NCBI GenBank assembly: GCA_963737155.1
Contig: CAVTRN010000001.1
Span: 1-64,000, forward strand
From: Nitrospirota bacterium
GTDB taxonomy: Bacteria; Nitrospirota; UBA9217
Direction: 5' to 3'
DNA length: 64,000 nt
Part shown: positions 42,992-60,536 of the stretch, in pieces
Layout: the number at the start of each line of letters is the position of its first letter
How positions within the stretch are numbered: position 1 is the first letter of the stretch
Made by a program: the position numbers and the translations under genes
Notes under the pieces: model-generated
What the model saw: the letters and a program-made list of their open reading frames with translations, nothing else
Told to the model about the DNA's origin: nothing
The model's database searches: none

Positions 42992-43068
42992 GTACGCTTC
43001 TTTTAACCAAGAGTCAAGTATTAAGGATTTACTTGCTTTATGGGAATAAGTATGGTATAAAAGATAGC

Positions 43069-43737
43069 ATGCATCCTATTCAAGAAAAACTCTTCGAACT
43101 GTCGAATAAGAAAAACCTTGCCGAACTGAGTCTCAGGGAGATGGCCGGCGCAATCGGCCTGCCTCACGAATCCCCCCAGAAAATCAAGCACCATCTTCTT
43201 CAGCTCCAGAAGAAAGGGCTTGTTACCATAGATCGCGCCAAGGGTACGATGGAGCGTGCATCATCGACGCCTGGCTGGGCAAAAGGCCTCCTACACACGG
43301 CTTCCCATCTTTTTTCCATCCCTGTCATCGGAACCGCGAATTGTGGGCCGGCCACCATCTTTGCCGAGCAGAATTTCCAAGGGATACTTCGCGTATCGGG
43401 CAAGCTAGTCGGGCGCTCGAAGCCGACGGGACTCTACGCGATCAAAACCGATGGATCGTCCATGAATCGCGCCGAAGTCAATGGAAGGCACATCGAGGAT
43501 GGAGATTATGTCATCATCAATAAAAATGATGTCGATGTGAAGAGCGGGGATGTCGTCTTGGCAATTATCGACAACAAAGCGACCATCAAAAGGTTTATCG
43601 ACGACCGTGCAAACGGGCAGATCGTCTTGATGGCCGATTCCTCGTATGATTACGAACCTATTTACCTCCATCCCGATGATGATTTCAGCATCAGCGGGAA
43701 AATTGTTGCGGTAATTAAAAAACCGGTTCGCGCATAA
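43069..43737 (+). CDS. LexA/CI-like S24 peptidase repressor, probably leaderless
   Basis: HTH SLREMA..HHLLQLQKKG; ANCG cleavage site, GSSM Ser, TIKRF Lys; TTGCTT-17-TATAAA ends 7 bp before the ATG. Confidence 0.85.
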   Translation: MHPIQEKLFELSNKKNLAELSLREMAGAIGLPHESPQKIKHHLLQLQKKGLVTIDRAKGTMERASSTPGWAKGLLHTASHLFSIPVIGTANCGPATIFAEQNFQGILRVSGKLVGRSKPTGLYAIKTDGSSMNRAEVNGRHIEDGDYVIINKNDVDVKSGDVVLAIIDNKATIKRFIDDRANGQIVLMADSSYDYEPIYLHPDDDFSISGKIVAVIKKPVRA

Positions 43738-43790: not shown

Positions 43791-44843
43791 ATGGCATACG
43801 AAATAGACTACATTCCCGTTGGAGATGGAGAAAAAGGTGGCGATGCAATAGCATTGCGCTTTGGGAACCTTGCGGGACCGCGTGCGGAACAGGTAGTGGT
43901 TGTTATTGACGGCGGTTTTCAAGATTCCGGCGAAGAGTTGGTAAACCACATAAAGACTTTCTACAAGACGGACTTGGTGGATGTTGCGGTTTCAACTCAT
44001 CCGGATGCAGACCATGCATCGGGGCTTTCTGTTGTTATGGAAAAACTTCGCGTAAGCACGTTAGTCATGCATAGGCCATGGGAACATGCAGCGGATATAA
44101 AAGGGATGTTTAAAAACGGGCGCATTACCGTTGCCGGGCTTGAGGACAGAATAGAGAAATCGCTCCAGTATGCAAGTGATCTGGAAGCACTGGCAACCAA
44201 AAAAGGGGTACGCATAGTGGAGCCGTTTCAGGGGGTGACAGGCTTTAATGGCGCTTTGCATATCCTAGGGCCGTCACAGGAGTATTATGAAAGCCTTTTG
44301 CCTCTTTTCCGCGCTACTCCTGAACCGGTAAAATCTATCGGGATCTTTGCTCCGATAAGAAAAGCAGTGGAAGAAGCTATCAAGTGGGTCCAGGACCAGT
44401 GGGACATCGATCTGCTCGACGATGATGAAGATACGACATCTGCCGAAAACAGTACAAGCGCGATCATGCTCTTTAATCTCGATGGCCATAAGCTATTGTT
44501 CACAGGCGACGCGGGAAAAAACGCTTTACATCTTGCGGCCGATTATGCAGAATCACAGGGAATCCAGCTCACCGATCTCCAGATATTGGATGTGCCTCAC
44601 CATGGCAGCAGAAGAAACCTGAGCAGTGGGGTGCTGAAGAGAATCAAGGCTAAAACTGCGTCTATCTCTGCACCAAAGGCCTCACCGAAACATCCTTCTA
44701 AAAAGATCATCAATGCTTTGAAAAAGCACGGTTCGAAAGTTTATGTTGTAAAAGGCCAGAAGCTTTGTCATCCCTACCAAGCACCGGAGCGTGGCTGGTC
44801 TTCCGCAACCGAAGAACCGTTTCATGATTATGTCGAAGAGTAA
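43791..44843 (+). CDS. MBL-fold hydrolase (ComEC/Rec2-like)
   Basis: VG.GDA, IDGG, THPDADH, FTGDAG, VPHHGS. Confidence 0.88.
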   Translation: MAYEIDYIPVGDGEKGGDAIALRFGNLAGPRAEQVVVVIDGGFQDSGEELVNHIKTFYKTDLVDVAVSTHPDADHASGLSVVMEKLRVSTLVMHRPWEHAADIKGMFKNGRITVAGLEDRIEKSLQYASDLEALATKKGVRIVEPFQGVTGFNGALHILGPSQEYYESLLPLFRATPEPVKSIGIFAPIRKAVEEAIKWVQDQWDIDLLDDDEDTTSAENSTSAIMLFNLDGHKLLFTGDAGKNALHLAADYAESQGIQLTDLQILDVPHHGSRRNLSSGVLKRIKAKTASISAPKASPKHPSKKIINALKKHGSKVYVVKGQKLCHPYQAPERGWSSATEEPFHDYVEE

Positions 44844-44857
44844 GCGGATAAAGGCTT

Positions 44858-45547
44858 ATGACCGATAACGACAAAAATACTATGGCAAAAAAAGAATCGC
44901 TCAAAGAAAAAAACACTCCGCTTATCGTCATCTTTATCGTCTGGTGCTTGGCTCTCTACGCCGTATTCGTGATTTCACCCTCGGATTTTTGGGATAAGCT
45001 GCAGTCCACGTTCAAGGAGATCAACGCGAAAGACGGTCTCATCTTCATTATCTCGCCGATTCTGACGTTAATCCTTACAGGACTGGTCAGTTCTGATAAC
45101 AAGGCCAAGCTCGTATTCTGGAAATGCAGGTACGCGCTACCGGGGCATCGGGCATTCTCTACGGTGATCCGACATGATGTCAGGATCAATAAAAAGCAGC
45201 TGGCGCAAAAGATGGGATCGTTTCCAAAAGGCCCCAAAGAGCAGAACAGCCGATGGTATTCAATTTACAAGCGATACTCGGTAGCTCCGATGGTCCTCCA
45301 CGCTCATAAGCAATTTCTTCTCTCCCGAGATCTTTGTTCTATTTCTTTTCTTTTTTCATTTATCGGCCCTTGGGGTCTTCTTCTCTTCGGCCACAAGTTA
45401 TCCTGGGTGCTATTCTATGCGTCGGTGATGTTCGCGCATTATCTCCTATTCATGGTAGTATCTCGAAACCATGGCAATCGATTTGTCTGCAATGTTCTGG
45501 CTGAGTTTATGGCAGATAACAATCCAGGTCCTGCTGCAGGTCAGTAG
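44858..45547 (+). CDS. Four-TM membrane protein
   Basis: 2 TM, soluble loop KAKLVFW..LPG.RAFS..EQN..WY..Y, then 2 TM. Confidence 0.75.
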   Translation: MTDNDKNTMAKKESLKEKNTPLIVIFIVWCLALYAVFVISPSDFWDKLQSTFKEINAKDGLIFIISPILTLILTGLVSSDNKAKLVFWKCRYALPGHRAFSTVIRHDVRINKKQLAQKMGSFPKGPKEQNSRWYSIYKRYSVAPMVLHAHKQFLLSRDLCSISFLFSFIGPWGLLLFGHKLSWVLFYASVMFAHYLLFMVVSRNHGNRFVCNVLAEFMADNNPGPAAGQ

Positions 45548-45569
45548 ACGAAGAGGGGGGGTCAATATT

Positions 45570-45764
45570 ATGCCGATGCCGGACACCGTTACAGAAATCA
45601 AGGACAAGAAAAATAATTTTACTTTTCGTGTTCGCGCCTATCGGAAAATCACACCCCAAGAAATGACAGAATCTTATGCGGACTGGTATCGGCAAAGAGA
45701 CAAGCGCTGGTCCTATAAGAACAAGATCATCGAGGTTGTCTCGATCATTGGATATGACGAGTAA
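45570..45764 (+). CDS. Small hypothetical protein
   Basis: GAGGGG RBS, 64 aa, TAATG coupling to next ORF. Confidence 0.5.
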   Translation: MPMPDTVTEIKDKKNNFTFRVRAYRKITPQEMTESYADWYRQRDKRWSYKNKIIEVVSIIGYDE

Positions 45765-46009
45765 TGCTGGCTGCTCACATTTCAGGAGATCAAATAATGG
45801 GTATTCCGTATTTCATAAAGGCGACGCGAGCCTGTGCGGTTTGTACTTATTGGAACGGGAATCGCAGCAGATTTAGAGCAGGAATGGCGGTTGATTCAGA
45901 AAGCTCCCTTGGGTTGTGCCAGAACAGGAAATCGAATAAATATGGGGAGAATACGACGGCCGGGAAAAACAATTGTCCTGAATGCGTGACTTTATCAAAT
46001 TTAGAGTAA
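45764..46009 (+). CDS. Small Cys-rich protein
   Basis: CAVCTYWNG..C..C (ATG 45797 after AGGAG is the likely start). Confidence 0.5.
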   Translation: MLAAHISGDQIMGIPYFIKATRACAVCTYWNGNRSRFRAGMAVDSESSLGLCQNRKSNKYGENTTAGKNNCPECVTLSNLE

Positions 46010-46419
46010 TCTCGCTAAAATCTGGCTAAAGAATATCCTCCGGAATCGTCTTTTCCGTGGAAAATTATCCTTTATGTTCCCGTACGGTTGCGATAGAATT
46101 TCCGAGACTTGCAAGTAATCAGGTGGTTGGGTTCCGGCAGGCTCAAGGACCAAAATCCTCCGTAGGCAACTCCATATCGGTTCGATTCCGACTGTCGACG
46201 ACCTTCGGGTCATGAAACCCAATGGTTCTTTTATTTCTTTTATTTCATTGTTCGAAAGCCTACTAATACTCGCATTTTTTAACTGGAAGCAGGATATTCG
46301 TTCGATTCACGAATGTGGCACTCTTCACCTGCGGCGGTGGGAATCATACCTGAGCACATACTTGATATTTTTCAGATTATTTGGCTCAAAGTTACGATCA
46401 CGGTATGATAGAATTAACG

Positions 46420-48165
46420 TTATTCTTCATATTTGATGTCAACTTTTATACCTAGCAGTTTTTCGGAATCAGACTGATCTGTTAAAACCAACACTGTATT
46501 TTGCTCTATTATATTCTCGTATTCATCTTTTTTTAGGTATCTTTTTATTTCTTCAAGTTGGTTCTGATTTATGCTCGCAATGTACTGATGTCCCTGTTTA
46601 TTGTTTGTAAACATCTCGGCAACGATCCTAAAAAGAGCAGTTTTCTGTATTTCGTCAATTCCATCAAACAAACGGCTATCATGAAACACAAAATTCATAT
46701 TATGACCGTAACCTTTAAATAATAAGGTCAAGTCATAGCAAAATATTTTGACGTGATTTATCCCGTCGGACGCATCCGCATCAATTCGTGCGTCAATATT
46801 ATACCGTATTTGGTTTTCTCCCTCATTATTGTAGACTGTAATACCTGATGAAGCTTCTGGATAAAACTGCTTGGCCAGGGATCGGAAAAAATCTCGAACC
46901 CCGTCAATTATAGCCCTCGAATCCTCTAAATAAGAGTCTGTTCTACGAACTGCTTCAAGCATTTCTTCTCGAATTTCGAGATCAGTATTATGATACTCTG
47001 CGATCAACTTGTCATATTTTATAAGGTTATCTTTCTTCATACGTAAATCAGATAGGCGCTGAGTCACTTTTACAAAAACATCTAGCGCCTGATGTGCCCC
47101 TAAGTATTGTAACATTCTATCCAGATCATTACGCAATTGCTTGTGAAGGTCTGTTTTACTCTTTAGCAGCTTCTCAATGCGGCGTTTCTGTTCAGTAAGT
47201 CTTTTCTGCCGGTTCTTTATGAGACTCTCATAAAATAACTTTACTTGTTCAAGACTATAGGTTACTTGATCAGGGAATAGTATTCCAGCCTCTGCATAAA
47301 TTTTTTCAATACCGTCTGTTCCTACCTCTGGTGCCACTTTTAAGCTTTTATCAATATTCTCTATTTGATAGCCAAGCAAAACTACATTATTATTAATCTC
47401 GGTCAAATCTTTTTCAATTCGATCTGCTGTCCACTTAACTTCATAATAATCGTCCGCAACTCGAAAATATTTTATGTCAGTCTCAACCTTCGAAATCTTA
47501 TCGTCGAGATCTTTCGCTGCAAGCTGAGGGTCCGCACTCCCTGCAAAAAAATTCTTCAGCAGCTCATCATTTTTGATATTATCCGTTAATGTTTTTACCC
47601 TGTCCTTTTCTTTTTTATAATTTAGCTTTTCTTGTGCTAAATTAAGATCAAGCCCCAACAAGAAGGCATTATTAAGCATCTTCTGATAATCGGATCCAAC
47701 CTTTAAGGATTGGTCGTAAGATACATATGATTGCATATATGGGCGAATAAAAAAAGGAAGCAATGATCGGAAAGACAAATATTTGATTTCCTCAGGCATA
47801 TCAAAACAGAGCTTCTCGAGTATGTCATTGAACTTCGTAATCCTCAATTCATTGTTATTTAAATAAATGACTCCGGGATTGTTTGTCCCTCGCCGTGCAG
47901 TATAATTTTCAAGTTTCGCTTCAAATTCAAGAAAAAATTCCCAGTCTGGCAATTCTTTACAAAAAGACTTGTAGTGCTTTTCGGAAGCGCCAAGACAAAA
48001 ATGGATAATTGAAATAAGTATAGACTTACCGACACCGTTATAAGTTTTTCCTTTTTCAGTTGAGTCCTGTTTGCTATGTTTCGCCACAACAAAACTCAAA
48101 CCATTATAATTGAACTTAACAGGCCTGAAAGAGGATTTATTGGCATTAATAGAAAGTAATCTCAT
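46420..48165 (-). CDS. lmuB: Lamassu/ABC-3C SMC-like ATPase (DUF2326)
   Basis: YNGVGKS Walker A, coiled coil, DASDG, HDSRLFDGID. Confidence 0.85.
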   Translation of the reverse strand: MRLLSINANKSSFRPVKFNYNGLSFVVAKHSKQDSTEKGKTYNGVGKSILISIIHFCLGASEKHYKSFCKELPDWEFFLEFEAKLENYTARRGTNNPGVIYLNNNELRITKFNDILEKLCFDMPEEIKYLSFRSLLPFFIRPYMQSYVSYDQSLKVGSDYQKMLNNAFLLGLDLNLAQEKLNYKKEKDRVKTLTDNIKNDELLKNFFAGSADPQLAAKDLDDKISKVETDIKYFRVADDYYEVKWTADRIEKDLTEINNNVVLLGYQIENIDKSLKVAPEVGTDGIEKIYAEAGILFPDQVTYSLEQVKLFYESLIKNRQKRLTEQKRRIEKLLKSKTDLHKQLRNDLDRMLQYLGAHQALDVFVKVTQRLSDLRMKKDNLIKYDKLIAEYHNTDLEIREEMLEAVRRTDSYLEDSRAIIDGVRDFFRSLAKQFYPEASSGITVYNNEGENQIRYNIDARIDADASDGINHVKIFCYDLTLLFKGYGHNMNFVFHDSRLFDGIDEIQKTALFRIVAEMFTNNKQGHQYIASINQNQLEEIKRYLKKDEYENIIEQNTVLVLTDQSDSEKLLGIKVDIKYEE

Positions 48166-48398
48166 TTTTCCAATACCCCATCATTTTCTTTAATTGCGTT
48201 TATGGTATATAGAAAGATGATAGCAAGCACTAATTTATCAAAACTGATTCTCACAGTATAAACACCTTCGTTAAAGTCTTTATTGTATTGTTCCCATATT
48301 TCATCGATACTCTTCGGTTTCGATAGATTGCCCAGAATGTAGCTACCTAAACCGATAATAGATTCTGATAAATTAATATGTTTAGTCGGCAATAGCAT
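48162..48398 (-). CDS. lmuC: ABC-3C middle component (LmuC-like)
   Basis: 78 aa MLLPTKHINLSESIIGLG...LYTINAI, coupled to both neighbours. Confidence 0.75.
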   Translation of the reverse strand: MLLPTKHINLSESIIGLGSYILGNLSKPKSIDEIWEQYNKDFNEGVYTVRISFDKLVLAIIFLYTINAIKENDGVLEK

Positions 48399-49303
48399 TA
48401 GTGTTTGGTAGGCTCTTCAAAAATATCGCAGACCTCAAAATACTTGGCCATTATAACAAGGACAGCATTCTGATACGCTGAACCGGCTTTTGGACTTGCC
48501 TCGGCAAGAATATACATGAATAATTTATCGCCTTTTTTAGTTTTCTTGCCCAAAAGATACAACCTAAGCAGTTTATCCTTGAGTTCCTCAGCAAGAAAAT
48601 CGCCGTTGTTTTTTAAATACTCTTCAAGGCAACCAACTTGAATGTAAGCACTGTTGAGATAACTCGCAATAGTTTTTGATAACTTGTTAAATTTTATTTT
48701 TTTCGACCAGTCAGGGATATTATAAGACGTTCCGCCCTTTGGAATTAGCGAAATACTCATAATATGTGCTACAACTTCATTAAGAACACTATAATCTAGA
48801 ATCTTAATGTTTTGCGGGTCCGGCAAGAATCCGACAACATTCGTAATTTGATCTTCCTCCAATTTAAACAATATATTTTCTAAATGCTTTGTAGTAATGA
48901 ATCCCGCCTTTTTCAACTTATGATTCTTTTTAATCTTCTTGAGGTTTTTCTCGCTGTCTGCATTCACACCCTTGTACTTGTCATTAACTACAAAATAAAA
49001 CTCATTTACTGGGCTCCATTGCTTTTTGAGGCCATCAAAATCCTTTAACAATTTTTTTACAACAGCGGGATAAGATTGCTGTATCTCTTCTGGAGCAAAG
49101 ACCTGATAAAAAATTCCTTTCGATTTGATATACCCATCATTTTTTCTATCTCCGATATTCCCCCACGGTTTAATTTGTTGAAAATCATGCTCCGCATAAT
49201 TCATAATCCTAGTAAACAGATCTTCGAATGCATTGCCATCGGATTGATTTATTCTGTTACGGAATAAAATTCTCGCGAGTGTCTTCTCAACACTGTTCAT
49301 CAC
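48398..49303 (-). CDS. lmuA: Lamassu/ABC-3C effector with PD-(D/E)XK nuclease
   Basis: GNAFEDLF, GDRKNDG, YQVFAP; C-terminal KIKFNKL...YFEVCDIFE. Confidence 0.8.
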   Translation of the reverse strand: MMNSVEKTLARILFRNRINQSDGNAFEDLFTRIMNYAEHDFQQIKPWGNIGDRKNDGYIKSKGIFYQVFAPEEIQQSYPAVVKKLLKDFDGLKKQWSPVNEFYFVVNDKYKGVNADSEKNLKKIKKNHKLKKAGFITTKHLENILFKLEEDQITNVVGFLPDPQNIKILDYSVLNEVVAHIMSISLIPKGGTSYNIPDWSKKIKFNKLSKTIASYLNSAYIQVGCLEEYLKNNGDFLAEELKDKLLRLYLLGKKTKKGDKLFMYILAEASPKAGSAYQNAVLVIMAKYFEVCDIFEEPTKH

Positions 49304-49617
49304 ATACCTTACACTTTAGATATTTTTGAAATATTCACTACAATGTTCGATCTTCTATTTGTAATTTCTCTGAGCCTCTCAAGTCATCCATGAACATAAT
49401 GCATGGTACTCCTGATATCCGCGTGGGGCGAAGCAGAGCTTGAGCAGCTTTCGCATCTTCGCAAGTTTCCACGATCTGAGTAGCAAATCAATGCCTTGAC
49501 ACTTCGTAATGTGTGAATTTAATCTCCGGAATGCTACAACGCCCCCAAAGTTTTTGAGATATAGTCAGGGGTAGTATCTTGAAAAGTTAGGTCGCGAACG
49601 AGCAAGAAATCAAATAC

Positions 49618-50994
49618 TTATGGTTTGTATAACGGCACCTCTGATCTTTTATTTATACTATTTCCGAAACTTGACCCAAACGACTGCTGAGCTTCGATAA
49701 CAATGGTGTGGCTAAGTGGTCGGCGAACAGATTCTGGTGTAACACCAGCTTTCAAAGCATGCATGACACCGACCGCTTCAAGATAATTTTCCACAATAAA
49801 GAGTTTGCCCGGTGCAAACGGCAAAGCATCCAATCTGTTCTTCATGCGGTTCTTATTTTCTCTGACTGCTATTATCGGTATCCCCTGCTCCAGAGCAGCT
49901 AAAGTCGGAAGGCCGATGCATCCATCTGGAATAACAAGACAAGATATATCTGTCGAGCTCAAGACCCCCGCGCGTCCAAAATCCGCCGGATTCGTCACTA
50001 GCCTGGGGCTCTTATGAAGCCCCTTGAGGATGCAATGCAAAAAAGTCAACGAGATTGCTTCAGCGGCTTTTCTGGGCTCGACAATTCCTAAGTCGAGATT
50101 CATAATGTCCTTCGATTCCATCATAGGTGAATGGGCCGATGGGGTATTAAACAACATGGAAATTGCATGAGTCAGCATTGCTTCTACCCCACCCCACGGG
50201 TTTATTGTCTCTTCAGAAAAATATTTTAGATGGGTAGTGTTGGTTAAATTTATAAGCGATGATATGGCGACGGCATCATACTGAGAACGGTATTCGGTCA
50301 GAAGTTCACATAACCGCTCAAGATATTCTATCCGCCCGACAGCTCTCCCCGAGCTTGAAACGAGGGCATCCATCTGGATTGTTTCTTCCATCTTTACAAC
50401 TAAGGGACAATCCAATCCCATGGACGCACGTACAGCAGAGACTGAGTTTACCGTGGCCTCACAGAAATACTCGTCTTCATGTTTGTCCATAACAAGCATT
50501 ATCCTGTTTGATCTTACTTTCTGCAGGCCCACTGTTCCCATCAGTATACGTGCTATGATGCTGCCTTCCACGTAGAGCCCATTTTCCGGCAGTTCATTGA
50601 TGTCGGACGCATTAACCACGTTCGGATGAGTTATGAGTGAATCGCATGCCGAGGCCAGGAGCCGCGCCACAGGGCCTCCATCTCCGGAATGGCCGCCAAT
50701 CTCTGCATCTATGCCGGTGGGGATGAGCAAAACAGTATTGAAGTGGTCAGAATTCTCATAGCTTCTCCGGTTAAATTCAAAGATGGAACTCTGCGACGGC
50801 ACAAAGTTGTAATGGACATCGGACATGACTCCGAGCTCACAATGATACCCCGTGTTGTCAGTCTGCGTAACAACAAAGCGAACCGGTATTTTCCCAAGAG
50901 GGATCTGCTTTAATACCTCATTTGAAAGATATGACAATATCCCTTCATGATTGTGGTTATTAGGTATGGCAACTTCCTGCTCATAAAGTAACAT
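49618..50994 (-). CDS. DUF3326 family protein
   Basis: IPTGI.AEIGGH.GD, LITHPNVVNASD, YVEG, NPWGGVEA.LTH, AHSP, PRKAAE; GGAG-ATG overlapping nspC stop. Confidence 0.85.
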   Translation of the reverse strand: MLLYEQEVAIPNNHNHEGILSYLSNEVLKQIPLGKIPVRFVVTQTDNTGYHCELGVMSDVHYNFVPSQSSIFEFNRRSYENSDHFNTVLLIPTGIDAEIGGHSGDGGPVARLLASACDSLITHPNVVNASDINELPENGLYVEGSIIARILMGTVGLQKVRSNRIMLVMDKHEDEYFCEATVNSVSAVRASMGLDCPLVVKMEETIQMDALVSSSGRAVGRIEYLERLCELLTEYRSQYDAVAISSLINLTNTTHLKYFSEETINPWGGVEAMLTHAISMLFNTPSAHSPMMESKDIMNLDLGIVEPRKAAEAISLTFLHCILKGLHKSPRLVTNPADFGRAGVLSSTDISCLVIPDGCIGLPTLAALEQGIPIIAVRENKNRMKNRLDALPFAPGKLFIVENYLEAVGVMHALKAGVTPESVRRPLSHTIVIEAQQSFGSSFGNSINKRSEVPLYKP

Positions 50995-52171
50995 TTTTAA
51001 TCTCTCCGCATCGTGAAATGAAATCCTCGTAACCAAATTCCTTTTTTAATTCCAAATGCCCGTCCTGCGTATACGCATAGATCGAGGGCAAATTGACACC
51101 GTTGAACATGTGCGCCTTTACCATAGTATAGGCCCCCATATATTGAAAGACAATCCGGGAACCTAATTCGAGCGGTTCCGCAAATCTATATGTGCCGAAG
51201 ACATCACCTGCAAGGCATGTGCAACCCGCAAGGATATACTCGTGTGGTCCATCGGATGATTCCTGCATGATTTCGGGCCGATACTGATACTCGAATATCT
51301 CCGGCATATGGTTAACAGTAGTATCGAGAACGGCTACTTTTTTTCCATCGCTCTCGAAAATATCGATAACGCTCGATACAATATATCCCGCCTCTTCAAC
51401 TACACCTTGGCCGGGCTCGATAAAAACATCGAGTTTGTATTTATCCTTTATGAGCCCTATGGCCGCGTAAAAGTCGGCCGGATCGGCCTCGTTGAACAGA
51501 TATCCTCCCCCCAGATTGATCCAGGAGATGTCAGACAAAAGACGGGGGATTTGGCGATCCAAATACTTCACGGTTGCGAGCAACGGCCCATAGGTTTCGG
51601 AGTTGCTATTCGTGTGGAAGTGAATACCTTGTATTTCGCTGCAAAGCCGCTTATTCTTTTCAAGAGCTTTTTGGAGTTGTGTTAGCGGAACTCCAAGCTT
51701 GGAATGTTTTCTGCAAGGGTTATATCGTTTGTCTTCAACAAAAGACAGTTGAGGATTGATTCTTAATCCACAGCTTGCTTGCACAGATGCCTGCCTCGAA
51801 AACCGTTCCCACTGGGAGAGCGAGTTGAAACTGATGTTGTCGGCTACTCCAGTAATATCCTCTATTTCGCAAGGCTTATATCCGGGTGTTACCATGTGAA
51901 CAGTTCCGGAAGAACCAAGAACCTCTCTTGCTAGTTTTGCCTCAAACAGGGAGCTTACCGAAAAACCATTTAAGTGAGGAACCATCAAGGGCAGCGCATC
52001 ATAGACAGCAAAGGACTTTAATGAAAAAAACACCTTGCAGCCAGCTTTCAGATTATCCGCTTTTAGCATCTCTAGTGATTGAATGATAGTTTGTTCATGA
52101 TATATGAATGCCGGCGTCTGTTTGATGCCCGAATATATTGAAATGTTTTTTTTCGTTATTCCGTTGTACAT
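50981..52171 (-). CDS. nspC: Carboxynorspermidine decarboxylase-like PLP enzyme
   Basis: TPAF, SLKSF (PLP Lys), RINP, SKLGV, HFH, NLGGG, EPG, TCLAGDVFG, YTMVK..FNG. Confidence 0.85.
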   Translation of the reverse strand: MYNGITKKNISIYSGIKQTPAFIYHEQTIIQSLEMLKADNLKAGCKVFFSLKSFAVYDALPLMVPHLNGFSVSSLFEAKLAREVLGSSGTVHMVTPGYKPCEIEDITGVADNISFNSLSQWERFSRQASVQASCGLRINPQLSFVEDKRYNPCRKHSKLGVPLTQLQKALEKNKRLCSEIQGIHFHTNSNSETYGPLLATVKYLDRQIPRLLSDISWINLGGGYLFNEADPADFYAAIGLIKDKYKLDVFIEPGQGVVEEAGYIVSSVIDIFESDGKKVAVLDTTVNHMPEIFEYQYRPEIMQESSDGPHEYILAGCTCLAGDVFGTYRFAEPLELGSRIVFQYMGAYTMVKAHMFNGVNLPSIYAYTQDGHLELKKEFGYEDFISRCGEIKNVTL

Positions 52172-52906
52172 TTAGGCACCCTTCGGTATAGATATGTTAA
52201 AAGGAGGCCCATCCAACTTCTTAAATCTGCAAAAAGCTCTCGCGACTGCAGCAAATTCGTGATTTGCAGCCATGAGCGTGCTAAATATGTTTTTCTTATT
52301 TGTTAAGATACCTTGTTGCGCATTATGATATGCATGCAATAAAGCAAAATATTCTGAAAGAAGCTCTTCAACGATAAAAGTTCTGTGCCTTTTTGTATAG
52401 AACGGTGCATGCAATTTAACAATATCAATTGTAAGTCGCCCCATTTTACTGCTATTCTTCGCTTTAGGAATACCTAGCTCCTCGAAATTTGACTCATCCA
52501 CAATAAAGTCAATGTGGTCTTCTGGATCTATTTTAGGATCACTTGGATCAATTAAAAGAGTTTTCCCCCTCTTAGAAGAGCTTTTTTTTAAATAAACAAC
52601 TTTGGGATTATTGCTATCATTTGTCAGTTCAACTGGAAATTTGTCGGATTTACTTCCATTACACTGAGCACATGCTAACAAAAGATTCTTCCAATCGTTC
52701 TTTAAAAATTTAAAAATAGACTTCGGCTGAAAATGCTCGACTGCTTTTGAATGGCCCTCGTCTGGGATTAACTGTTCACAATAACAGCACTTCCCTTTCT
52801 GCATTTGCCAAAGGGTTTTTACAACTTTTTGCTTGTTGTAATGAGTCCCCTTCTGCGGAGAATTTTTCAAAATATCAGGCGCCAGAGCCCGGTTAACTTT
52901 TATCAT
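52172..52906 (-). CDS. ptuB: HNH endonuclease, Septu PtuB-like
   Basis: KCCYCE, VEHFQPKS, W.NLLLAC..CN..K.DKFP, LIDP. Confidence 0.85.
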   Translation of the reverse strand: MIKVNRALAPDILKNSPQKGTHYNKQKVVKTLWQMQKGKCCYCEQLIPDEGHSKAVEHFQPKSIFKFLKNDWKNLLLACAQCNGSKSDKFPVELTNDSNNPKVVYLKKSSSKRGKTLLIDPSDPKIDPEDHIDFIVDESNFEELGIPKAKNSSKMGRLTIDIVKLHAPFYTKRHRTFIVEELLSEYFALLHAYHNAQQGILTNKKNIFSTLMAANHEFAAVARAFCRFKKLDGPPFNISIPKGA

Positions 52907-54203
52907 TGAATATTTTTTGTTCTAATGTTTTGATGTTTTCCCGCATTGCTGTATATATATCTGCCTGCACATCTCTTACGAATTCCGTATCGCCAGTCGG
53001 CTGTATTGCGTTCCTTAAATATTCTTTTATCTCGTTATATTTTCTATTTTCTTTTGCCGTACGCTTTTTCCCTTTGCCAGCCAATTCCGATATTTCTTTC
53101 AATACATTTTCCAACTCCTCATCAGTTTTTACCAAATGCCCAAATGGTTTAGAAGCCAGTAGTTGATCATATTGTAATCCTTTGAACCCGATAATTTCTT
53201 TTTCACTAAAAATATAGTCTTGAATTTTGCTCTGTTCTGGTACAAAAGAGAAATGTATAACCTTTGATCCACTAAATTTGGATCCCTTGGGCTTGACTAA
53301 TTGGCCAATACTGCCTACGATCAATGGCGAGTGAGAAGTTGTAATGAATTGCACATTGGGGAAAGCCTCTCGTAACCTATGAACAATATTTCTCTGCAAT
53401 TTAGGATGTAAATGCAATTCGACTTCATCAAGCAAAATAATTCCACTAATATTCTTCGGATTGCTTTCTTTCTGACGCCGCCCTGCGTGGTAGATTTGCC
53501 AGCCGATGAAATCCAATAGCCATGTGAATGTTGTGCGGTATCCATCCCCGAAGTCTTCAAGAAAAACGTCTCCCTTGGGGGTTTTGACAACAATGCCATT
53601 AGGTGAGCTGTCTAAAATAATATTTTGTTTCGATGTATTAAAGATGTCAAGCATTAAAATGCTTTCGATTAATTTCAGCAATTGATGCTGTCGTTTCTTA
53701 TTCTGTCTATTTAATATTAATTCAGGATTCTGCAAGGATGACGCATAATTGAACATGGTATATACAGCTTCTAATATAGAATAATCGCTAAAGCTGTTAT
53801 CACCCGGGATCGATCTCTGAATTCCATACCCACAAACAAAAACTTTACGTCTGAGATCTTTCCCCCTTATCACATTCTGATAGATTGTTTCAAAACCTTT
53901 TTTACTTTCCAAAACAGTTTCTATGATTAGTGATTTTTTTGTTTTAGGATCGAAAAGAGTGATTTTGATTATTCCTCTTCTCGATAAGTCTCTAATGAAG
54001 CTGCCATATAATTCTTTCATGAGCGCTGCACCGCTCAACTCGTCGCAAAGACCTATTGCAATACAGCGCAAGAAACATGTCTTTCCAGATGCATTGTCGC
54101 CAAGAATAGTATTCCACCGCGCGGGAATGCCACCATTTTCGAATGAAATCTTTATCTCATCGAAACATCTAATATTCTTTATGTAGACTTTGGAAATATA
54201 CAT
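52893..54203 (-). CDS. ptuA: ABC/AAA_21 ATPase, Septu PtuA-like
   Basis: GDNASGKT, YG.QR, FGDGY, ILLDEVELHLHPKLQ, QFITTSHSP. Confidence 0.85.
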   Translation of the reverse strand: MYISKVYIKNIRCFDEIKISFENGGIPARWNTILGDNASGKTCFLRCIAIGLCDELSGAALMKELYGSFIRDLSRRGIIKITLFDPKTKKSLIIETVLESKKGFETIYQNVIRGKDLRRKVFVCGYGIQRSIPGDNSFSDYSILEAVYTMFNYASSLQNPELILNRQNKKRQHQLLKLIESILMLDIFNTSKQNIILDSSPNGIVVKTPKGDVFLEDFGDGYRTTFTWLLDFIGWQIYHAGRRQKESNPKNISGIILLDEVELHLHPKLQRNIVHRLREAFPNVQFITTSHSPLIVGSIGQLVKPKGSKFSGSKVIHFSFVPEQSKIQDYIFSEKEIIGFKGLQYDQLLASKPFGHLVKTDEELENVLKEISELAGKGKKRTAKENRKYNEIKEYLRNAIQPTGDTEFVRDVQADIYTAMRENIKTLEQKIFNDKS

Positions 54204-54434
54204 ATTTAAAAAATTGTTGTTATTTAATCTACTAACTTCGCTTAGCACTCTAAGCTAAGCAGATTTATAAGGTAAGTTAACGCATTTTCTGATATTATTG
54301 TTGTAAAAAAATGAGCGAAGAAGTACTAATAGAAAAAGACTATATCATGGTTGAAGAAGAAAATGCAAGCGGATTTGCTCCTGCACATTGCGGTATCCTG
54401 GCTTATTAATGTCTTTACTCAATGAGGTGCGAGA

Positions 54435-55619
54435 ATGCCGAAGAAGGTCAGCATCGTCACAGGGCCAATAGTTGGCCTTCGCTCTACAAAATTTATTGAA
54501 GAAACTACTGCGTTTGCGAAGACTGCCGGCGAAAAAGTCGTTCATTTCAACTTATTCAGCGAAATACTCGATCATTGTGGCATCGTAGCCCGTAATGCTT
54601 ATGAAGAGATTCTGCATATTGGCAATCTGTTCAACGGCTATGAATATCAATTCAGGTGCATGCGCGAAAAAGCTTATCTGTCTCTTGCCAGAAAGATTGA
54701 TCGCCTGGGGAAGGACGTCAGTGTCATTATCAGGACTCCCGCGTCGATAGAATGGCGGGGATACAACTTGATTCTGAAGGACCACCGGATTATTGCGGAA
54801 GCAATAATGCCGGACCTGATTGTAACCCTTATAAACGCCGAATGGAAAATAAAAGATCATTTAGCAGGGAATTATGGCAAGCATGTTTTAAAAGTGATTG
54901 CACAGCAAAAGGAACTGACAGTCCCCAAAATACTGGAGTGGCTGGCTTCTGAAGTATCGGCCAGCGAAGACTGGGCTGAGTGGGCAAGTCACCTGACGAA
55001 AAAGAAAGTGAAACACATCGTTTTCGGAATGGAAACGCCAGGCTACAAGGACAGAAAGAAATATGTTCGCGATGTTGAAGGCCTCGCGAAGCTGGTAACG
55101 CAGAAAGATGTTCCCACTTTTTACACATCGTATTCCATGACCGTAGCGACTGAACCTGTAAGAAAGAAAATAAACGACGTTATCTGGAAGCTGCGAGCAT
55201 ACGGCGTAGTCATTGATCCTGCATCGATAGAACTCGGGACCAATGTCGACAAAGAACACGAGAATATAGTTTTCGCCTATACCATTTGCAGAGACCTGCG
55301 ATGGGATGTGCAAAAGGTTGACGCAGTGGTTGCCATCCACCCTTATGATGAAATGCCGCCACTCAGTACGGGCATGATGGACGAACTCGGTCATGCCCGC
55401 GCGTATGGGAAAGACAGATATTTAATACTTCCAAAAGGTGGAGGTAGCCCATTCACGCGAGATAATTACGTGCCTGCCAACCATGTCTTTAAGACAGAGG
55501 CAGAGTTCTTTAATTTTGCGGAAAATAAACGGAGACCTACGCTCAAACCCAAGTACGAAAAGTTCCAGAAAGCATTTGCGACCTGGCAGACAAAACATGC
55601 GAAAAAAGATCAAAAATAA
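54435..55619 (+). CDS. Nucleotide-kinase-like (archaeal AdkA-type, degenerate P-loop) + nucleoside 2-deoxyribosyltransferase-like fusion
   Basis: IVTGPIVGL..., IIRTPAS, PDLIVTLI; C-half YTSYSMT, RDL..VQKVD.VVA, STG...EL..A...GK, SPF. Confidence 0.6.
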   Translation: MPKKVSIVTGPIVGLRSTKFIEETTAFAKTAGEKVVHFNLFSEILDHCGIVARNAYEEILHIGNLFNGYEYQFRCMREKAYLSLARKIDRLGKDVSVIIRTPASIEWRGYNLILKDHRIIAEAIMPDLIVTLINAEWKIKDHLAGNYGKHVLKVIAQQKELTVPKILEWLASEVSASEDWAEWASHLTKKKVKHIVFGMETPGYKDRKKYVRDVEGLAKLVTQKDVPTFYTSYSMTVATEPVRKKINDVIWKLRAYGVVIDPASIELGTNVDKEHENIVFAYTICRDLRWDVQKVDAVVAIHPYDEMPPLSTGMMDELGHARAYGKDRYLILPKGGGSPFTRDNYVPANHVFKTEAEFFNFAENKRRPTLKPKYEKFQKAFATWQTKHAKKDQK

Positions 55620-55633
55620 TTACGGGAGGCATC

Positions 55634-56359
55634 ATGCAGAGATTACTTGTAAGCGTTCGGGGACCGCAGGAAGCAATTGCAGCTATTAAAGGGGGGGCTC
55701 ACATAGCTGATGTCGAATATCCTGCTTCTGCTCTTGGGACCCCATATCCGCTCAATATCCTCACTGTTCGCAATAGGCTGAACAAGGCCGGATATAAGAG
55801 GATACCGGTGTCAACCAATATTGGTGAGGTACCGGGTGTGCGTGCTTCATCTTGCCAGGCGGCCTTGGGCGTAGCAACTGCGGGGGCTGATATCATCAAG
55901 TGCGGCATGGCCGAACTACCGTATGATGCTGCGGTTTATCTCGGCAATCTTATGGTCCGGACCATCAAGAAATTCTATCCGAGAAAAAAAGTTGTGACTG
56001 CCGTGTTCGTCGATGACGACATGAGAAGATACTTTGACCCCTTTGCCGAAGGGATAGCGTTGGTGAAAGAGATCAATGCAGATGGCATCCTTATCGATAC
56101 TTTCAATAAATCGATCGAGAAAGGACTTCTGGATTACTGTATAAAGAAGGATTTGAGAACACTTGCTAAAAAGTGTCACAGGGCTGGGAAGGAAGCCTGG
56201 ATTGCGGGCTCCATTACAAGGGAAGATTTACCGGACCTATGGGCTACGGGCGTTGATGTAATTTGCGTCAGAGGCGCTGCTTGTGAGAAGACAGGAAAAG
56301 GGCGATTTGGCGAAGTTAAGGCAAAAATCGTTAAGGATCTTGTTTCGACCTGTCTATAA
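55634..56359 (+). CDS. mfnB: MfnB/DUF556-family TIM-barrel aldolase-like protein (variant active site)
   Basis: LLVSV...EA..A..GGAHIADV, VSTNIG, GADIIKCG, LIDTFNK, AGS, CVRGAAC. Confidence 0.8.
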   Translation: MQRLLVSVRGPQEAIAAIKGGAHIADVEYPASALGTPYPLNILTVRNRLNKAGYKRIPVSTNIGEVPGVRASSCQAALGVATAGADIIKCGMAELPYDAAVYLGNLMVRTIKKFYPRKKVVTAVFVDDDMRRYFDPFAEGIALVKEINADGILIDTFNKSIEKGLLDYCIKKDLRTLAKKCHRAGKEAWIAGSITREDLPDLWATGVDVICVRGAACEKTGKGRFGEVKAKIVKDLVSTCL

Positions 56360-56446
56360 CCATAGCGGGATTGGGAAGATTGCCTGATAAGATAAATTGC
56401 AATGTTTATCCCTTTATTCTCTCATCACGATTGGCTTTTCGGGCTC

Positions 56447-57481
56447 CTAAAGACCAAAGGCCCGTAAATCATTCTTCACTGCTTCGACACCACTCCAGTC
56501 CGAGATTCGTCGGCGAAACATATAATAGCATGGGGAATCAGGCCATGAAAGCTGCATTGCAGCCTTGAGTGCATCTGCTGGTCGCGCCTGAAGTAGAAGT
56601 TGCTCTGAGGCAGGCGGGATTTCTCTTGGAATTGTGTCCCAAATCGCTGAATCTTTAGAGGTGAGCCCGGCACGTACGCATGCACAAAGCTGTTTCGGAT
56701 GGCTGTAGCTACGCCTTCCGCGCGCCACTGTCGCAGGAAATAGATCGCCTAAAACACTAACGACAGATATATAAGAGCGAAGGACTGAATCGGCAATTAC
56801 ACTGGCCGAGGGACGGATGTCCCGTAGCGTACACCAGTGCTCCCATGACTTCCCCCCGTTTCTCTGACTATCTATAGGTTGATCGAACTGCTGGCGTTGC
56901 CATCCGTTGAACCGGTAGGCGTCGTCATTGGCTCCGCGTGCTGATATATGGCCTATCGAAGTTCCTTCAACAAACCCAAGCAATTTCGATCCCTGAAGAA
57001 GCACCCGTGCCGCTGGTGAGGCTAGAGGATGCGTCGAGGCCTGTCCTTCGGATTCTACTGTCAGAGATGAAAAATATTGGTCAAGAGTGGGGTTATAAGA
57101 GATTTCAATCCATAACAGACGACCATCGGTCGCTTGCCGAACTCCACCGGCTGCAACTACGTGGCATGAAATGTGCCAAGCTCCATTGTCACCTGAGGCA
57201 CCAGGGCCCAAATCCGCCCCATTAATAATTGTCCGATCAAGCCACATACGCCGAATTGCTTCGAGGTTCTCATCGCTATCGGATAAACTTCCTCCCTCTT
57301 CAATTTGAAAGCCGAAAATGCCGCGTTGCATAGTCGCCTCCTGGCGAACCTCAGAAAACAAGGCATTTCGAGTTGTTTCTTTGTCCTTCTTGCGCTGCCA
57401 ATAAATGCGCCCTACGACTACGGCTGTCCCAATCAAAGCGGCAATGAGCACTGCATTTATAATTAGCTGCAGGACTGTCAT
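56447..57481 (-). CDS. Hypothetical protein with N-terminal TM anchor
   Basis: AAGGA RBS, 344 aa. Confidence 0.65.
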   Translation of the reverse strand: MTVLQLIINAVLIAALIGTAVVVGRIYWQRKKDKETTRNALFSEVRQEATMQRGIFGFQIEEGGSLSDSDENLEAIRRMWLDRTIINGADLGPGASGDNGAWHISCHVVAAGGVRQATDGRLLWIEISYNPTLDQYFSSLTVESEGQASTHPLASPAARVLLQGSKLLGFVEGTSIGHISARGANDDAYRFNGWQRQQFDQPIDSQRNGGKSWEHWCTLRDIRPSASVIADSVLRSYISVVSVLGDLFPATVARGRRSYSHPKQLCACVRAGLTSKDSAIWDTIPREIPPASEQLLLQARPADALKAAMQLSWPDSPCYYMFRRRISDWSGVEAVKNDLRAFGL

Positions 57482-57933
57482 ACATCCTTTCTACGTGATG
57501 ATTCGTGCTTCTCCCGATGAGGCGTGAATCCCGGATTTTGAATAAAACGACAAGGAAAATATATTAATTGTCAAGGCGGATTTCGGATTAACGAGCGCCC
57601 CTATGAGACCGCTCAATAGATTAGATTAATAAAGAGGATTGAGTTGTTTCATCTGGTGGCACAAGATTACCTTCCTAAATTGTTTTAAATATGCTCGAAT
57701 TCATGGCATATTTCAGCAACGCTCCTACGCACGATTTCTACTTGTACCATGCATTCAATTAACCAATACAAAGATTTGTAGTTCAGTAAGATCGTTTGGT
57801 TGAAATTATCAACCAGTAGTTCAGTATTCTTTTCTCCGGCCGGTATCGCGGCCACCTACTAATGCACAATCACACCAAGGAAAAAAAACATGTCAAATAT
57901 CAATCGAAACATGTTGAACATTCGCGGGAGATA

Positions 57934-60039
57934 TCATTTTTTCCGTTTTTGTCTGTATCGCGGTGAATGAGTAAGACTCAAATGAGAACGTACAATGACA
58001 TCCATGTGGTTGCTCATGGTAAAGTCTGTATAATCGTATTTTTTAGGAGTTCGTAATTTACGAATGCATAGAGCAAATATAGGAGCAGGGACTATCATCA
58101 AAAGTCGTTTATGTTCAAAAAAAAGAGCCTTAGTTCTATCCTTCTCGTTATCTGTTAAAGCTTCGCTTTTCCCACGTCTAACCGCTATAGCGAAACTGCC
58201 ATATTCGCCGCTTGTATAATCTAATATTTGTCTGAAGTCGTCAGGTGTTAGTTCTTCGTAGTTCTTGCATTCAAAAACAATTTGCCTGCTGCGGTAGTCC
58301 TCGTAAATTCTTTGCCAGAATGTTGTTTTAGTAATGTTAGTTGCTACAACATCTCTTTGATTCAAAGCTGCTGTCGGATTTGGTTTAAGTTCAATGTTCG
58401 TTAAAGATCCAGCGAACAATAATCTGACTGCCCTCGCTACCCACGTTTCAAAGGCACTACTGCCATCATGTCCCGTGGGGATGCCCGATAGTTCCTCAGG
58501 AAGCCTTCCGAGTCGCTTCAGGCGTAAATTGAACGTATCACTTTTTGGCGGGGCAGTATATTCATCGTTTACCTTGATTAACATTTCTGATGGCTCAGAT
58601 GTCACCGATATGTCAAGCGCCTTCCAGTAACAAGGGTGAATAAGGGTTTCACGATTCGGGTCCGCGGTTAGAAGTTCAGACATGGCACCATCATGACAAA
58701 ACAAATAATTACCAGAGCTAGCATCTTTAAGTCCTATAAACCCGACACTGTAAAGGGCCGAAAACATCTCGCTACCGGTTTCAAAAAGAATTAAATCTCG
58801 AGCGGCACTATCTGCATAGTCGTTATGATCTGCGATATATTGCAAATGATCTGATACTGCTCGAAAAGGTTGCAACGCAGGCAGACCGTGAAAGCTTGTC
58901 ACAAAAAGACGAAGTCCCGGTAAAACTTTATCGTACTCTTTACACAAGTCCTCGAGCCTGTACTGTGAAATACTAATCGCGCTCTTTTCTATATCGTTCT
59001 CAATAAGAACATTGCGTCCTTCGCGAGTTGCGTTTACATATGATTCGTTGAGTAGTACCAGAATATCCCTAGGTCGAAATAGTGTAAATCTCAAGCACTT
59101 ATTAAAACCTTCGCGATTCTGAAGTTCGCGCTGAGCGAATCTGTTCCAGACCTTCACTTCATTTTCTACGCTATCTAGTTTAAGTACAATGCGCAACCGG
59201 GCAGCAATAAAATGGAAGAGCGACTCTTCATTCCACTGTAAGCGGAGTGTATGCCCTTCAATATGGCGTGTAAAATCATCGTCGAGTTGTGCAAGAGCTC
59301 GAATCATGTTATCTCTGATAAACAAAATTGGATAAAAAGGAAATCGTCTTTCTCGATATTCTGATGCTGTTCTAGCAAGACCACCAAGAATGGATACGGA
59401 AGGGACATCTGGAACCCATGCTTCATCGAGACGGTCGTAAAGAGCTACGATCCGAAGCTCCGTTTTTTCGAGCGCCTCATGAAGGGAATCAGTAACTTGT
59501 CTAACCTGGTAGTTTGTCGCAATTATTCGTGCAATTTCTTCCTTCGAAGGAGAACCAGATAATGTTCTTTTCAAAATTGCCATGCAATTTGTAATGCCAC
59601 TTCCGGTGCAATAATCTTGGTGTCTTTTAATATACTCATTTAGAAATACTGCATTTTCTGACTTATTAAACAAATAATGTGTAGAAACAGCACTTGTTGA
59701 CCTGAGCAGAAAATGCACTGTCCAGAGTAAACGTGATATAGGACGTAGAAGGCGATATTCTTTGGATATAGATGCGAGAAGCGATTGCATCTCTAGCATT
59801 TCATAATCTTGCGGCTCTTCAGTAATTAATATCGTACCAGTATCAGATGACAAAACATCTTTTAGCCGTTGATATATTGCACTCTTCCCAGTTCCTCGAC
59901 GCCCAACAACATAGCTAAAATCCGTGGTGTGAAGCAAAGCTTGGTAGTCAGCTGTTTCAATAAAACCCTGGCTCAACATTTGCCGATCTGCTTCGGCTTG
60001 TGCTGATCCAAGTAGGTTTCCAATCTTTTTATTTTGCAT
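57934..60039 (-). CDS. Sll1717-like P-loop ATPase with C-terminal restriction-endonuclease-like domain
   Basis: GRRGTGKS, YDRLDEAW, RPRDIL; C-terminal FE..QRD..FECKNY. Confidence 0.75.
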   Translation of the reverse strand: MQNKKIGNLLGSAQAEADRQMLSQGFIETADYQALLHTTDFSYVVGRRGTGKSAIYQRLKDVLSSDTGTILITEEPQDYEMLEMQSLLASISKEYRLLRPISRLLWTVHFLLRSTSAVSTHYLFNKSENAVFLNEYIKRHQDYCTGSGITNCMAILKRTLSGSPSKEEIARIIATNYQVRQVTDSLHEALEKTELRIVALYDRLDEAWVPDVPSVSILGGLARTASEYRERRFPFYPILFIRDNMIRALAQLDDDFTRHIEGHTLRLQWNEESLFHFIAARLRIVLKLDSVENEVKVWNRFAQRELQNREGFNKCLRFTLFRPRDILVLLNESYVNATREGRNVLIENDIEKSAISISQYRLEDLCKEYDKVLPGLRLFVTSFHGLPALQPFRAVSDHLQYIADHNDYADSAARDLILFETGSEMFSALYSVGFIGLKDASSGNYLFCHDGAMSELLTADPNRETLIHPCYWKALDISVTSEPSEMLIKVNDEYTAPPKSDTFNLRLKRLGRLPEELSGIPTGHDGSSAFETWVARAVRLLFAGSLTNIELKPNPTAALNQRDVVATNITKTTFWQRIYEDYRSRQIVFECKNYEELTPDDFRQILDYTSGEYGSFAIAVRRGKSEALTDNEKDRTKALFFEHKRLLMIVPAPIFALCIRKLRTPKKYDYTDFTMSNHMDVIVRSHLSLTHSPRYRQKRKK

Positions 60040-60536
60040 GGTGTTCCTTTTTATTTCATATGTGGGAAGTCAAATGCAAGAGTGGCGCACAATCTGCTGT
60101 TGTTGCCATTATTTATCGGTCTTACGATAGAATGGACTTCCTCTGTAACGGATTCCTATCCCCACAAATATATGCTTGATTCGGTGACATGTCAACAACG
60201 CTGAACGGTGATGTCAATTGGAGGGGTGTCGTAGCGATAATTAATGGGCAGAACGCTCACGAATACAGCTTGAAAATTACATTATGGCCATCAAACGACC
60301 TTCGGGTTGTAGACCCGATGGACTTTTTTGTGCTCCGTTTTTAAGATGGACAGCATATCAACACTCGATACTTTCAACTTGAAGCAAAGTATTCGTCCAA
60401 TTTCCGAACGTTGCACTCCACACCTACTTATGTATAATGCCAATATTATGACAGCGGTATGAAATCCGGTTTGATTCTTGCAATGAGCGTTTCGGCCTTC
60501 GCGGCAGTAGCCAGATTGGCGGCGTAAGTTCATAGA

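Follow-up and report, generated by a model that had tools for sequence, protein, structure and literature searches.

A clade of Septu-type PtuA proteins encoded next to a decarboxylase-DUF3326 enzyme pair of putative polyamine metabolism

A four-gene operon with ptuA and ptuB at its head

The stretch of DNA analysed here, hereafter the window, comprises the first 64,000 nucleotides of contig CAVTRN010000001.1 from a Nitrospirota bacterium (GenBank assembly GCA_963737155.1). On its minus strand lies an operon in which the Septu-type genes ptuA and ptuB are followed by genes for an NspC-like decarboxylase and for a DUF3326 protein (coordinates in Table 1), and it is this joining of PtuAB to two metabolic enzymes, here and in other genomes, that we describe. 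A first-pass annotation of the sequence had reported four minus-strand genes without spacers, and this description holds at every junction (14 nt, 0 nt and 14 nt, as read from the sequence and its open reading frames (ORFs)). The ptuB ATG at 52906 gives a 14-nt overlap with ptuA, the ptuB stop codon (52172-52174) abuts the decarboxylase ATG (52169-52171) as TAAATG with 0 nt between them, and the end of the decarboxylase gene (stop codon 50981-50983) overlaps by 14 nt the DUF3326 gene, whose start at ATG 50994 is consistent with the family alignment. The ptuA start was placed at ATG 54203, which agrees with the N-termini of homologues; the upstream GTG at 54248 does not.

In PtuA, the Walker A residue K41 together with D259 and H291 is invariant in the 8 linked homologues described below, as is expected of the ABC-type ATPase of Septu. 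The HNH nuclease PtuB is encoded directly downstream of PtuA, again as in Septu, and all 15 linked PtuBs compared share its residues C40, Y42, C43, E44, H58, N74, C79, C82 and N83. Promoters in the divergent intergenic region upstream of ptuA are assumed, because a consensus promoter scan did no better than shuffles: across 49200-57900 the counts of both promoters and terminators equalled those of shuffled sequence. In a look-up of sequencing runs no RNA run with the sequence was listed; only DNA contigs from soil metagenomes share 0.13-0.25 of its words.

Recurrence of the arrangement in unrelated genomes

When the DUF3326 protein was scanned against one genome per prokaryotic species, 36 loci were recovered from many phyla, at 50-68% identity. 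Seven of these were DUF3326 fragments and were not counted, leaving 29 that are full-length. Of the 29, 26 have a gene for a decarboxylase immediately before that of DUF3326; 10 of these genes are NspC-like, as in the window, and the other 16 encode a small protein of the S-adenosylmethionine decarboxylase (AdoMetDC) fold. In eight genomes a same-strand PtuA-PtuB pair directly precedes decarboxylase and DUF3326 (L007, L013, L014, L016, L022, L028, L033 and L038), which amounts to 8 of the 18 loci whose upstream sequence extends for at least 3.2 kb, or to 8 of 25 when a visible neighbouring gene suffices. The gene-neighbourhood search suggested in the first-pass annotation has thus been run, and an nspC-like or AdoMetDC-fold gene with DUF3326 does recur beside PtuAB in unrelated genomes. 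The eight hosts belong to at least five phyla, being deltaproteobacteria, Zixibacteria, Planctomycetota, Bacteroidota and Verrucomicrobiota, and at least six metagenome contigs likewise have the decarboxylase and/or DUF3326 gene after PtuB (L041, L044, L047, L048, L051 and L055).

The tight packing recurs together with the gene order. In 14 further loci with the same order, the gap between PtuB and decarboxylase ranges from -29 to +43 nt, a value of -139 nt that stems from an over-long ORF start call having been set aside. Four loci (L033, L028, L016 and L044) are compositionally uniform at GC contents from 0.30 to 0.58, and uniform composition at such different GC contents fits long residence as a unit. 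As a separate observation, one metagenome contig (L047:3934-7387) has two tandem DUF3326 genes behind a single PtuAB, the first of them preceded only by the remnant of an AdoMetDC-fold gene.

Linkage is confined to one PtuA clade

For the phylogeny of PtuA, an alignment of the 8 linked PtuAs served as query, metagenomes were scanned with one peptide pattern, and the best 80 matches listed were kept; the resulting tree of 88 rows was built with a quick method under LG+G4. All 14 linked PtuAs fall into one clade of 27 rows (support 83; 97 for an inner clade of 24 rows), which consists of 14 linked, 3 unlinked and 10 rows that could not be judged. Outside this clade none of the 61 rows is linked, 26 of which have at least 3 kb of downstream sequence, all among the best 80 matches listed. 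The linkage label requires 7 changes on the tree, compared with a mean of 13.2 when shuffled, and none of 500 shuffles was as low. We show here that linkage to the two enzymes is a property of one dedicated PtuA clade.

Gene context in this clade does not display the two-gene self-sufficiency of Septu type I, given that 14 of the 17 judged members carry decarboxylase and DUF3326 downstream. The three unlinked members (L054, L057 and L059) have room downstream and no enzymes there, and their PtuAs are longer, at 593-876 aa. The linked PtuAs are mutually 30-40% identical, in hosts with GC contents of 0.30-0.58. Identity of the metagenome PtuAs to the query is 28-41% for the 19 best matches and 24-33% for the 61 weaker ones.

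Two interchangeable decarboxylases and the probable product

The window decarboxylase has the domains of a fold-type III pyridoxal 5'-phosphate (PLP) decarboxylase (PF02784, PF00278) and matches the nspC model TIGR01047 over its full length, at 327.1 bits and below the equivalog cut-off of 409.05; K52, judged by its motif, is presumably the PLP lysine. The first-pass annotation had noted that the window encodes no carboxynorspermidine dehydrogenase (CANSDH), and its absence extends to the whole genome, where the search with PF03435 found only a 27-bit partial Rossmann match over 69 positions on contig 2, not a credible gene. The operon shares with the CANSDH-NspC pathway a decarboxylase of the TIGR01047 type, although one below cut-off, and lacks the dehydrogenase, whose place DUF3326 appears to take.

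The alternative AdoMetDC-fold gene encodes about 125 aa (Pfam AdoMet_dc, 3e-13). Its product is 17-25% identical to the AdoMetDC of the host and has T-S-N/T at the processing site, compared with E-S-H in the host enzyme, which we assume to be the motif of a genuine AdoMetDC. Within the linked PtuA clade, NspC-like and AdoMetDC-fold decarboxylases alternate. Given that the two are unrelated and yet interchange, the conserved feature is a function and not a gene, and on the simplest reading of these sequences both would finish the same DUF3326-dependent reaction. Phage homologues of AdoMetDC are known to have evolved into decarboxylases of ornithine or arginine (PMC9992855).

The closest guide to the product is the pavettamine cluster, in which PavA and PavB are both required for N-(5-aminopentyl)pentane-1,5-diamine, en route to a hydroxylated polyamine (bioRxiv 10.64898/2026.06.12.731819). 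In the operon, too, the DUF3326 gene lies next to that of an NspC-like decarboxylase. PavA differs in having a Rieske domain, where the window decarboxylase (396 aa) has only two decarboxylase domains, and the neighbours that were scanned include neither a JmjC-like PavC nor a cupin. By this analogy a polyamine is the most likely product of the two operon enzymes. The earlier proposal that NspC and DUF3326 produce an amine or polyamine gains experimental support from the triamine reported for PavA and PavB in that preprint. We also considered, and rejected, a true AdoMetDC partnered by DUF3326 as an aminopropyltransferase: the identity to host AdoMetDC and the altered processing motif speak against the former, and a C5-N-C5 triamine cannot derive from S-adenosylmethionine.

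The AlphaFold2 (AF2) model of DUF3326 is confident, with a predicted local distance difference test (pLDDT) score of 87.7. Invariant residues of the protein include D105 and H123. A search of the PDB by fold found no match at E<=0.001, with template modelling (TM) scores of at most 0.22, and only the flavodoxin-like sub-domain, taken alone, resembles lumazine synthase; a PDB search by sequence returned nothing. Because there is no solved fold relative, the fold gave no reaction mechanism. A canonical pair of AdoMetDC and spermidine synthase is present elsewhere in the genome, so that, next to this ordinary spermidine route, the NspC-like decarboxylase and DUF3326 form an extra pathway.

DUF3326 on large phages

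DUF3326 is also encoded on 66 IMG/VR contigs (L124-L189), and on 54 of them a gene of the AdoMetDC fold lies no more than about 2.2 kb away, in most cases as the immediate upstream neighbour. Two of these contigs, of 241 kb and 187 kb, were checked and carry tape-measure, adaptor and structural genes, and are thus bona fide large phages. No match to DUF3326 was found among GenBank phages (INPHARED) or PLSDB plasmids. Small AdoMetDC-fold genes, annotated as speD and in some cases encoding amino-acid decarboxylases rather than AdoMetDC, have been described in phages (PMC9992855); here such a gene is paired with DUF3326, a partner that the available part of that paper does not mention. For many phage speD genes that occur without spermidine synthase, DUF3326 may be the partner that was missing.

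Further genes that travel with ptuA or replace it

Upstream of ptuA, on the opposite strand, lie two genes that also accompany it elsewhere (Table 1). The product of the first, p394, has no Pfam or NCBIfam match, and a sequence search of the PDB gave chance-level matches only. Its AF2 model (pLDDT 85.9) is matched by Foldseek to adenylate kinases (E 4e-8, TM 0.7) and to a deoxyribosyltransferase (E 6e-5, TM 0.6), which predicts two domains, the first with an archaeal adenylate-kinase fold and the second with that of a nucleoside 2'-deoxyribosyltransferase. The second gene encodes an MfnB-like aldolase and is the sole PF04476 family member in the genome; it scores 135 bits with Pfam (cut-off 22.4) and 117 bits with the NCBIfam MfnB equivalogs (cut-off 341). 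Both thus recall methanofuran enzymes, the aldolase as a member of the 4HFCP_synth family of MfnB and the N-terminal domain of p394 by sharing the archaeal adenylate-kinase fold that we take MfnE to have. They differ from these in missing the MfnB equivalog cut-offs, in the fusion of the kinase fold to a deoxyribosyltransferase-fold domain and in their linkage to ptuA. Apart from this context, p394 represents an unannotated and unusually conserved family, with about 300 homologues that are 58-91% identical and spread over many bacterial phyla and Thorarchaeota; none was found on viral contigs.

The gene for p394 adjoins ptuA in the window, L007, L043 and L052, and the MfnB-like gene does so in the window, L007, L013, L041, L043, L045, L046 and L051, so that one or both are present in 9 of the 17 clade loci with a visible gene upstream of ptuA. 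Neither was ever found beside DUF3326 loci without PtuAB. In five linked genomes that lack them nearby, p394 is found in none and the MfnB family in one, which makes both genes optional. A third gene, for p344, has homologues beside the system in L041, L046 and L031, making it a possible further accessory gene in four loci including the window; its product has no Pfam, PADLOC or PDB match and no usable Atlas match, and in our own reading of its hydrophobic N-terminal stretch it would be membrane-anchored. The system is therefore not strictly one of four genes, as the first-pass annotation had it, since NspC is interchangeable and ptuA can be accompanied by as many as three others (MfnB-like, p394, p344).

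PtuAB itself can be replaced. In L005, L015, L021 and L024 a membrane protein of about 400 aa, here c5, with multiple membrane passes and a central coiled-coil region, is encoded directly upstream of the AdoMetDC-fold and DUF3326 genes in place of PtuAB, and it follows type III restriction-modification (R-M) genes in L015 and type I R-M genes in L021. This exchange of c5 for PtuAB resembles effector swapping.

Table 1. Genes and other features of the window that are discussed in the text (positions in the window)
Feature	Position	Strand	Evidence or remark
EcoRII-type restriction enzyme, 152-aa ORF and C5 cytosine methylase	40151-42907	-	
LexA-like S24 repressor gene	43033-43737		after the EcoRII R-M block
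Three-gene ABC-3C system (DUF2326 ATPase, MC6, CTD10)	46420-49303	-	PADLOC PDC-M68A/B
DUF3326 protein (PavB-like), 458 aa	49618-50994	-	Pfam PF11805 8.1e-90, residues 87-423
NspC-like fold-type III PLP decarboxylase, 396 aa	50981-52171	-	Pfam Orn_Arg_deC_N (PF02784), Orn_DAP_Arg_deC (PF00278)
ptuB, HNH nuclease, 244 aa	52172-52906	-	PADLOC PtuB 3.4e-26; Pfam HNH
ptuA, Septu-type ABC ATPase, 436 aa	52893-54203	-	PADLOC PtuA 1.1e-54; Pfam AAA_15, AAA_21, AAA_23
Divergent intergenic region ptuA/p394, presumed promoters	54204-54434		sole sizeable non-coding gap in the block
p394, predicted adenylate-kinase and nucleoside 2'-deoxyribosyltransferase folds	54435-55619	+	AF2 model, Foldseek
MfnB-like class I aldolase (4HFCP_synth), 241 aa	55634-56359	+	Pfam PF04476 3.3e-39
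p344, hydrophobic N-terminal stretch	56447-57481	-	homologues beside the system in L041, L046, L031
701-aa AAA-type ATPase, PIG-L deacetylase-like and GIY-YIG nuclease-like genes	57934-62000	-	

Comparison with known Septu systems and a possible mechanism

With Septu type I (Doron systems, PADLOC) the operon shares the ABC ATPase and HNH nuclease, the overlap of their genes and intact motifs. Classical Septu, however, consists of two genes, whereas the linked clade adds decarboxylase and DUF3326 downstream and often the MfnB-like gene and/or p394 upstream. The best analogy for this one-sided dependence would be retron type I-A, or Septu type II (Ec78/Eco7: reverse transcriptase, noncoding RNA and PtuAB), in which PtuAB is likewise tied to an extra module that is found elsewhere with other effectors (PMC8565338; see also PMC12640716). 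The extra module here is metabolic rather than a reverse transcriptase with its noncoding RNA. In agreement with the earlier remark that the window encodes no reverse transcriptase, RVT_1 matches occur in the genome only at C1:831546-832601, about 780 kb away, and the region 44000-62000 has no match (E<=0.1) to any Rfam family and so none to an msr/msd RNA, curated families being the only ones visible in this way.

No paper was found in which Septu or PtuA is connected to polyamine genes, decarboxylases or DUF3326, although supplementary tables could hold such a link; co-mentions of Septu and spermidine in the literature are retron and PtuAB structure papers. In PADLOC-DB 2.0.0 no model matches the decarboxylase or DUF3326.

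PtuAB has been described as a toxic nuclease that cuts DNA and tRNA, is inhibited by ATP and ADP, and is held quiescent by its retron partner (PMC13376987). In the linked operons, the amine product, or flux through the enzyme module, could play the role that multicopy single-stranded DNA and reverse transcriptase play in retron-Septu and keep PtuAB silent in healthy cells. A phage would perturb the metabolite by shutting off its host, by draining the substrate or because replicating DNA sequesters the metabolite; once the metabolite is disturbed, the PtuAB nuclease would be released and the infection would abort. Phage-borne pairs of AdoMetDC-fold and DUF3326 genes might then serve as a counter-measure. 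Taken together, this proposal, in which PtuAB coupled to a polyamine-type metabolite module constitutes a third Septu architecture, gating included, extends the retron analogy, and we judge it about equally likely to be right or wrong.

Autonomy of the enzyme pair and alternative explanations

Several observations weigh against a coupling of PtuAB to the enzymes. Decarboxylase and DUF3326 occur without PtuAB in 10 of the 18 evaluable genome loci; in four of five genomes that have the pair and no linked PtuAB, no PtuA-like gene is found anywhere at E<=1e-10; and the 66 viral contigs encode neither PtuA nor PtuB, nor any NspC, MfnB-like protein, p394 or p344. On a DUF3326 tree of 33 rows, linked and unlinked proteins are intermixed, with 10 changes where shuffling gives 10.1 on average. 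The ptuAB genes of the window have a GC content of 0.36-0.37 (0.36 for ptuA), compared with 0.44-0.48 for the enzyme genes on both sides, and this step suggests that the present pairing is probably recent. Sampling and annotation temper the case further: ascertainment of the PtuA clade is not neutral, since the query came from linked PtuAs and the scan used a single peptide pattern; of the ten clade rows that could not be judged, two show no PtuB and the others lie on contigs that stop short; and Pfam, PADLOC and PDB hold no precedent that links DUF3326 to defence. The assignment of PavA as an NspC-like decarboxylase domain and of PavB as DUF3326 comes from a preprint that has not been peer reviewed (bioRxiv 10.64898/2026.06.12.731819), and the operon protein and PavB are compared here at the level of their shared family.

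The supposition that the pair is tied to ptuAB is thus not borne out, PtuAB being missing from 10 of 18 genome loci and from all 66 viral ones. Since the pair is routinely found without ptuAB, the dependence is one-sided: the PtuAB clade goes with the enzymes, and not the reverse. The enzyme module can be read as autonomous, one Septu lineage having attached itself to it, just as PtuAB does with retrons (PMC8565338). What stands of the four-gene defence unit originally proposed is a recurrent, packed unit with a single PtuA clade; what does not is its exclusiveness, because the pair often lacks ptuAB and the unit is not strictly of four genes.

This autonomy lends itself to an explanation by co-travel, in which a mobile polyamine cassette that islands and phages carry has acquired one Septu lineage upstream, for the sake of expression or co-transfer, and the two units work independently. 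The self-sufficient pair, widespread without PtuAB and present on bona fide phage contigs, would fit such a history, as would the GC step inside the window operon, the other defence genes near many loci and the intermixing of linked and unlinked DUF3326, of which near-identical sisters differ only upstream (PtuAB in L014 but the membrane protein in L015; PtuAB in L041 but none in L026). However, a hot spot should gather many defence systems and many Septu lineages, whereas the same-strand genes found directly upstream are only those of the PtuAB clade (15 loci), c5 (4), HDOD (2) and c15 (2), and the pair is absent from all 26 ordinary Septu loci whose downstream context is visible. Moreover, the linkage is retained where PtuAs are 30-40% identical, in different phyla and with either decarboxylase family. 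The trees of PtuA and DUF3326 are in part incongruent (approximately unbiased (AU) tests on three groups gave p=0.0018, p=0.038 and p=0.43; the groups were named after the trees were seen, long branches are involved, and the 11-row PtuA tree is nearly unresolved), which fits modules that re-assort yet pair up again and suggests that the same pairing has been re-created. On balance we regard co-travel as a serious but somewhat unlikely explanation.

The reading in which PtuAB is controlled by the enzyme module could also be cast more widely, with decarboxylase and DUF3326 as the sensor or signal core of an unrecognised anti-phage family, whose polyamine-type molecule would control interchangeable effectors, PtuAB or c5. 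In some members the MfnB-like protein and p394 would elaborate the signal, and the pair carried by large environmental phages would partly hold the "all is well" state. We consider this wider version unlikely as it stands.

That the polyamine module itself primarily serves against phages or stress, for example through an unusual polyamine that disturbs phage DNA packaging or translation, with PtuAB as a second, synergistic layer, we hold to be quite improbable. The pair does occur in defence islands without PtuAB (in L015 by type III R-M, in L021 by type I R-M), it is accessory although a canonical spermidine route exists, and phage replication has been reported to need polyamines (PMC9992855). 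Yet phages themselves carry the pair (54 of 66 viral loci), which would hardly be expected if its product acted against them, and the dependence of one PtuA clade on the pair would be left unexplained. A self-marking scheme akin to R-M, an alternative raised in the first-pass annotation, in which host DNA or RNA would bear the amine and PtuAB would attack nucleic acid without it, would suit the deoxyribosyltransferase and kinase folds of p394 as nucleotide chemistry and the cleavage of DNA and tRNA by PtuAB (PMC13376987), but is very improbable given four core genes without a nucleic-acid transferase, the lack of p394 and the MfnB-like gene in about half of the loci (p394 being found nowhere in five such genomes) and a phage-borne pair that would mark phage DNA too.

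If the coupling of PtuAB to the enzyme module is real, a third Septu architecture would stand beside the stand-alone and retron-linked ones, with a metabolic module in the place of the retron, and bacterial immunity would be tied to polyamine-type metabolism, a combination that is rare. For DUF3326 this would be a second context, independent of the 2026 result on PavB and in accord with it, and its service by two unrelated decarboxylases would narrow its likely reaction. The near-constant pairing of viral DUF3326 with AdoMetDC-fold genes would, in turn, suggest a partner for phage speD genes without spermidine synthase.

Genomic setting of the operon

All genes of the block are accessory and borne on a defence island. 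Neither DUF3326 nor p394 was found in 40 relatives, 14 of them of the same genus and most 84-100% complete. The neighbours in the window are listed in Table 1, and sister loci of the operon adjoin type I and type III R-M genes. The ABC-3C system directly downstream of the DUF3326 gene is complete and has a GC content of 34-38%. The AAA-type ATPase, PIG-L deacetylase-like and GIY-YIG nuclease-like genes at the other end of the block (40-43% GC) are not conserved in related loci. In L013, L014, L010 and L035, genes for a PLD-SNF2 helicase and an Eco57I-type methylase adjoin the system; these neighbours possibly represent Hma-like systems, within which Septu has been found embedded (preprint 10.1101/2024.01.29.577857).

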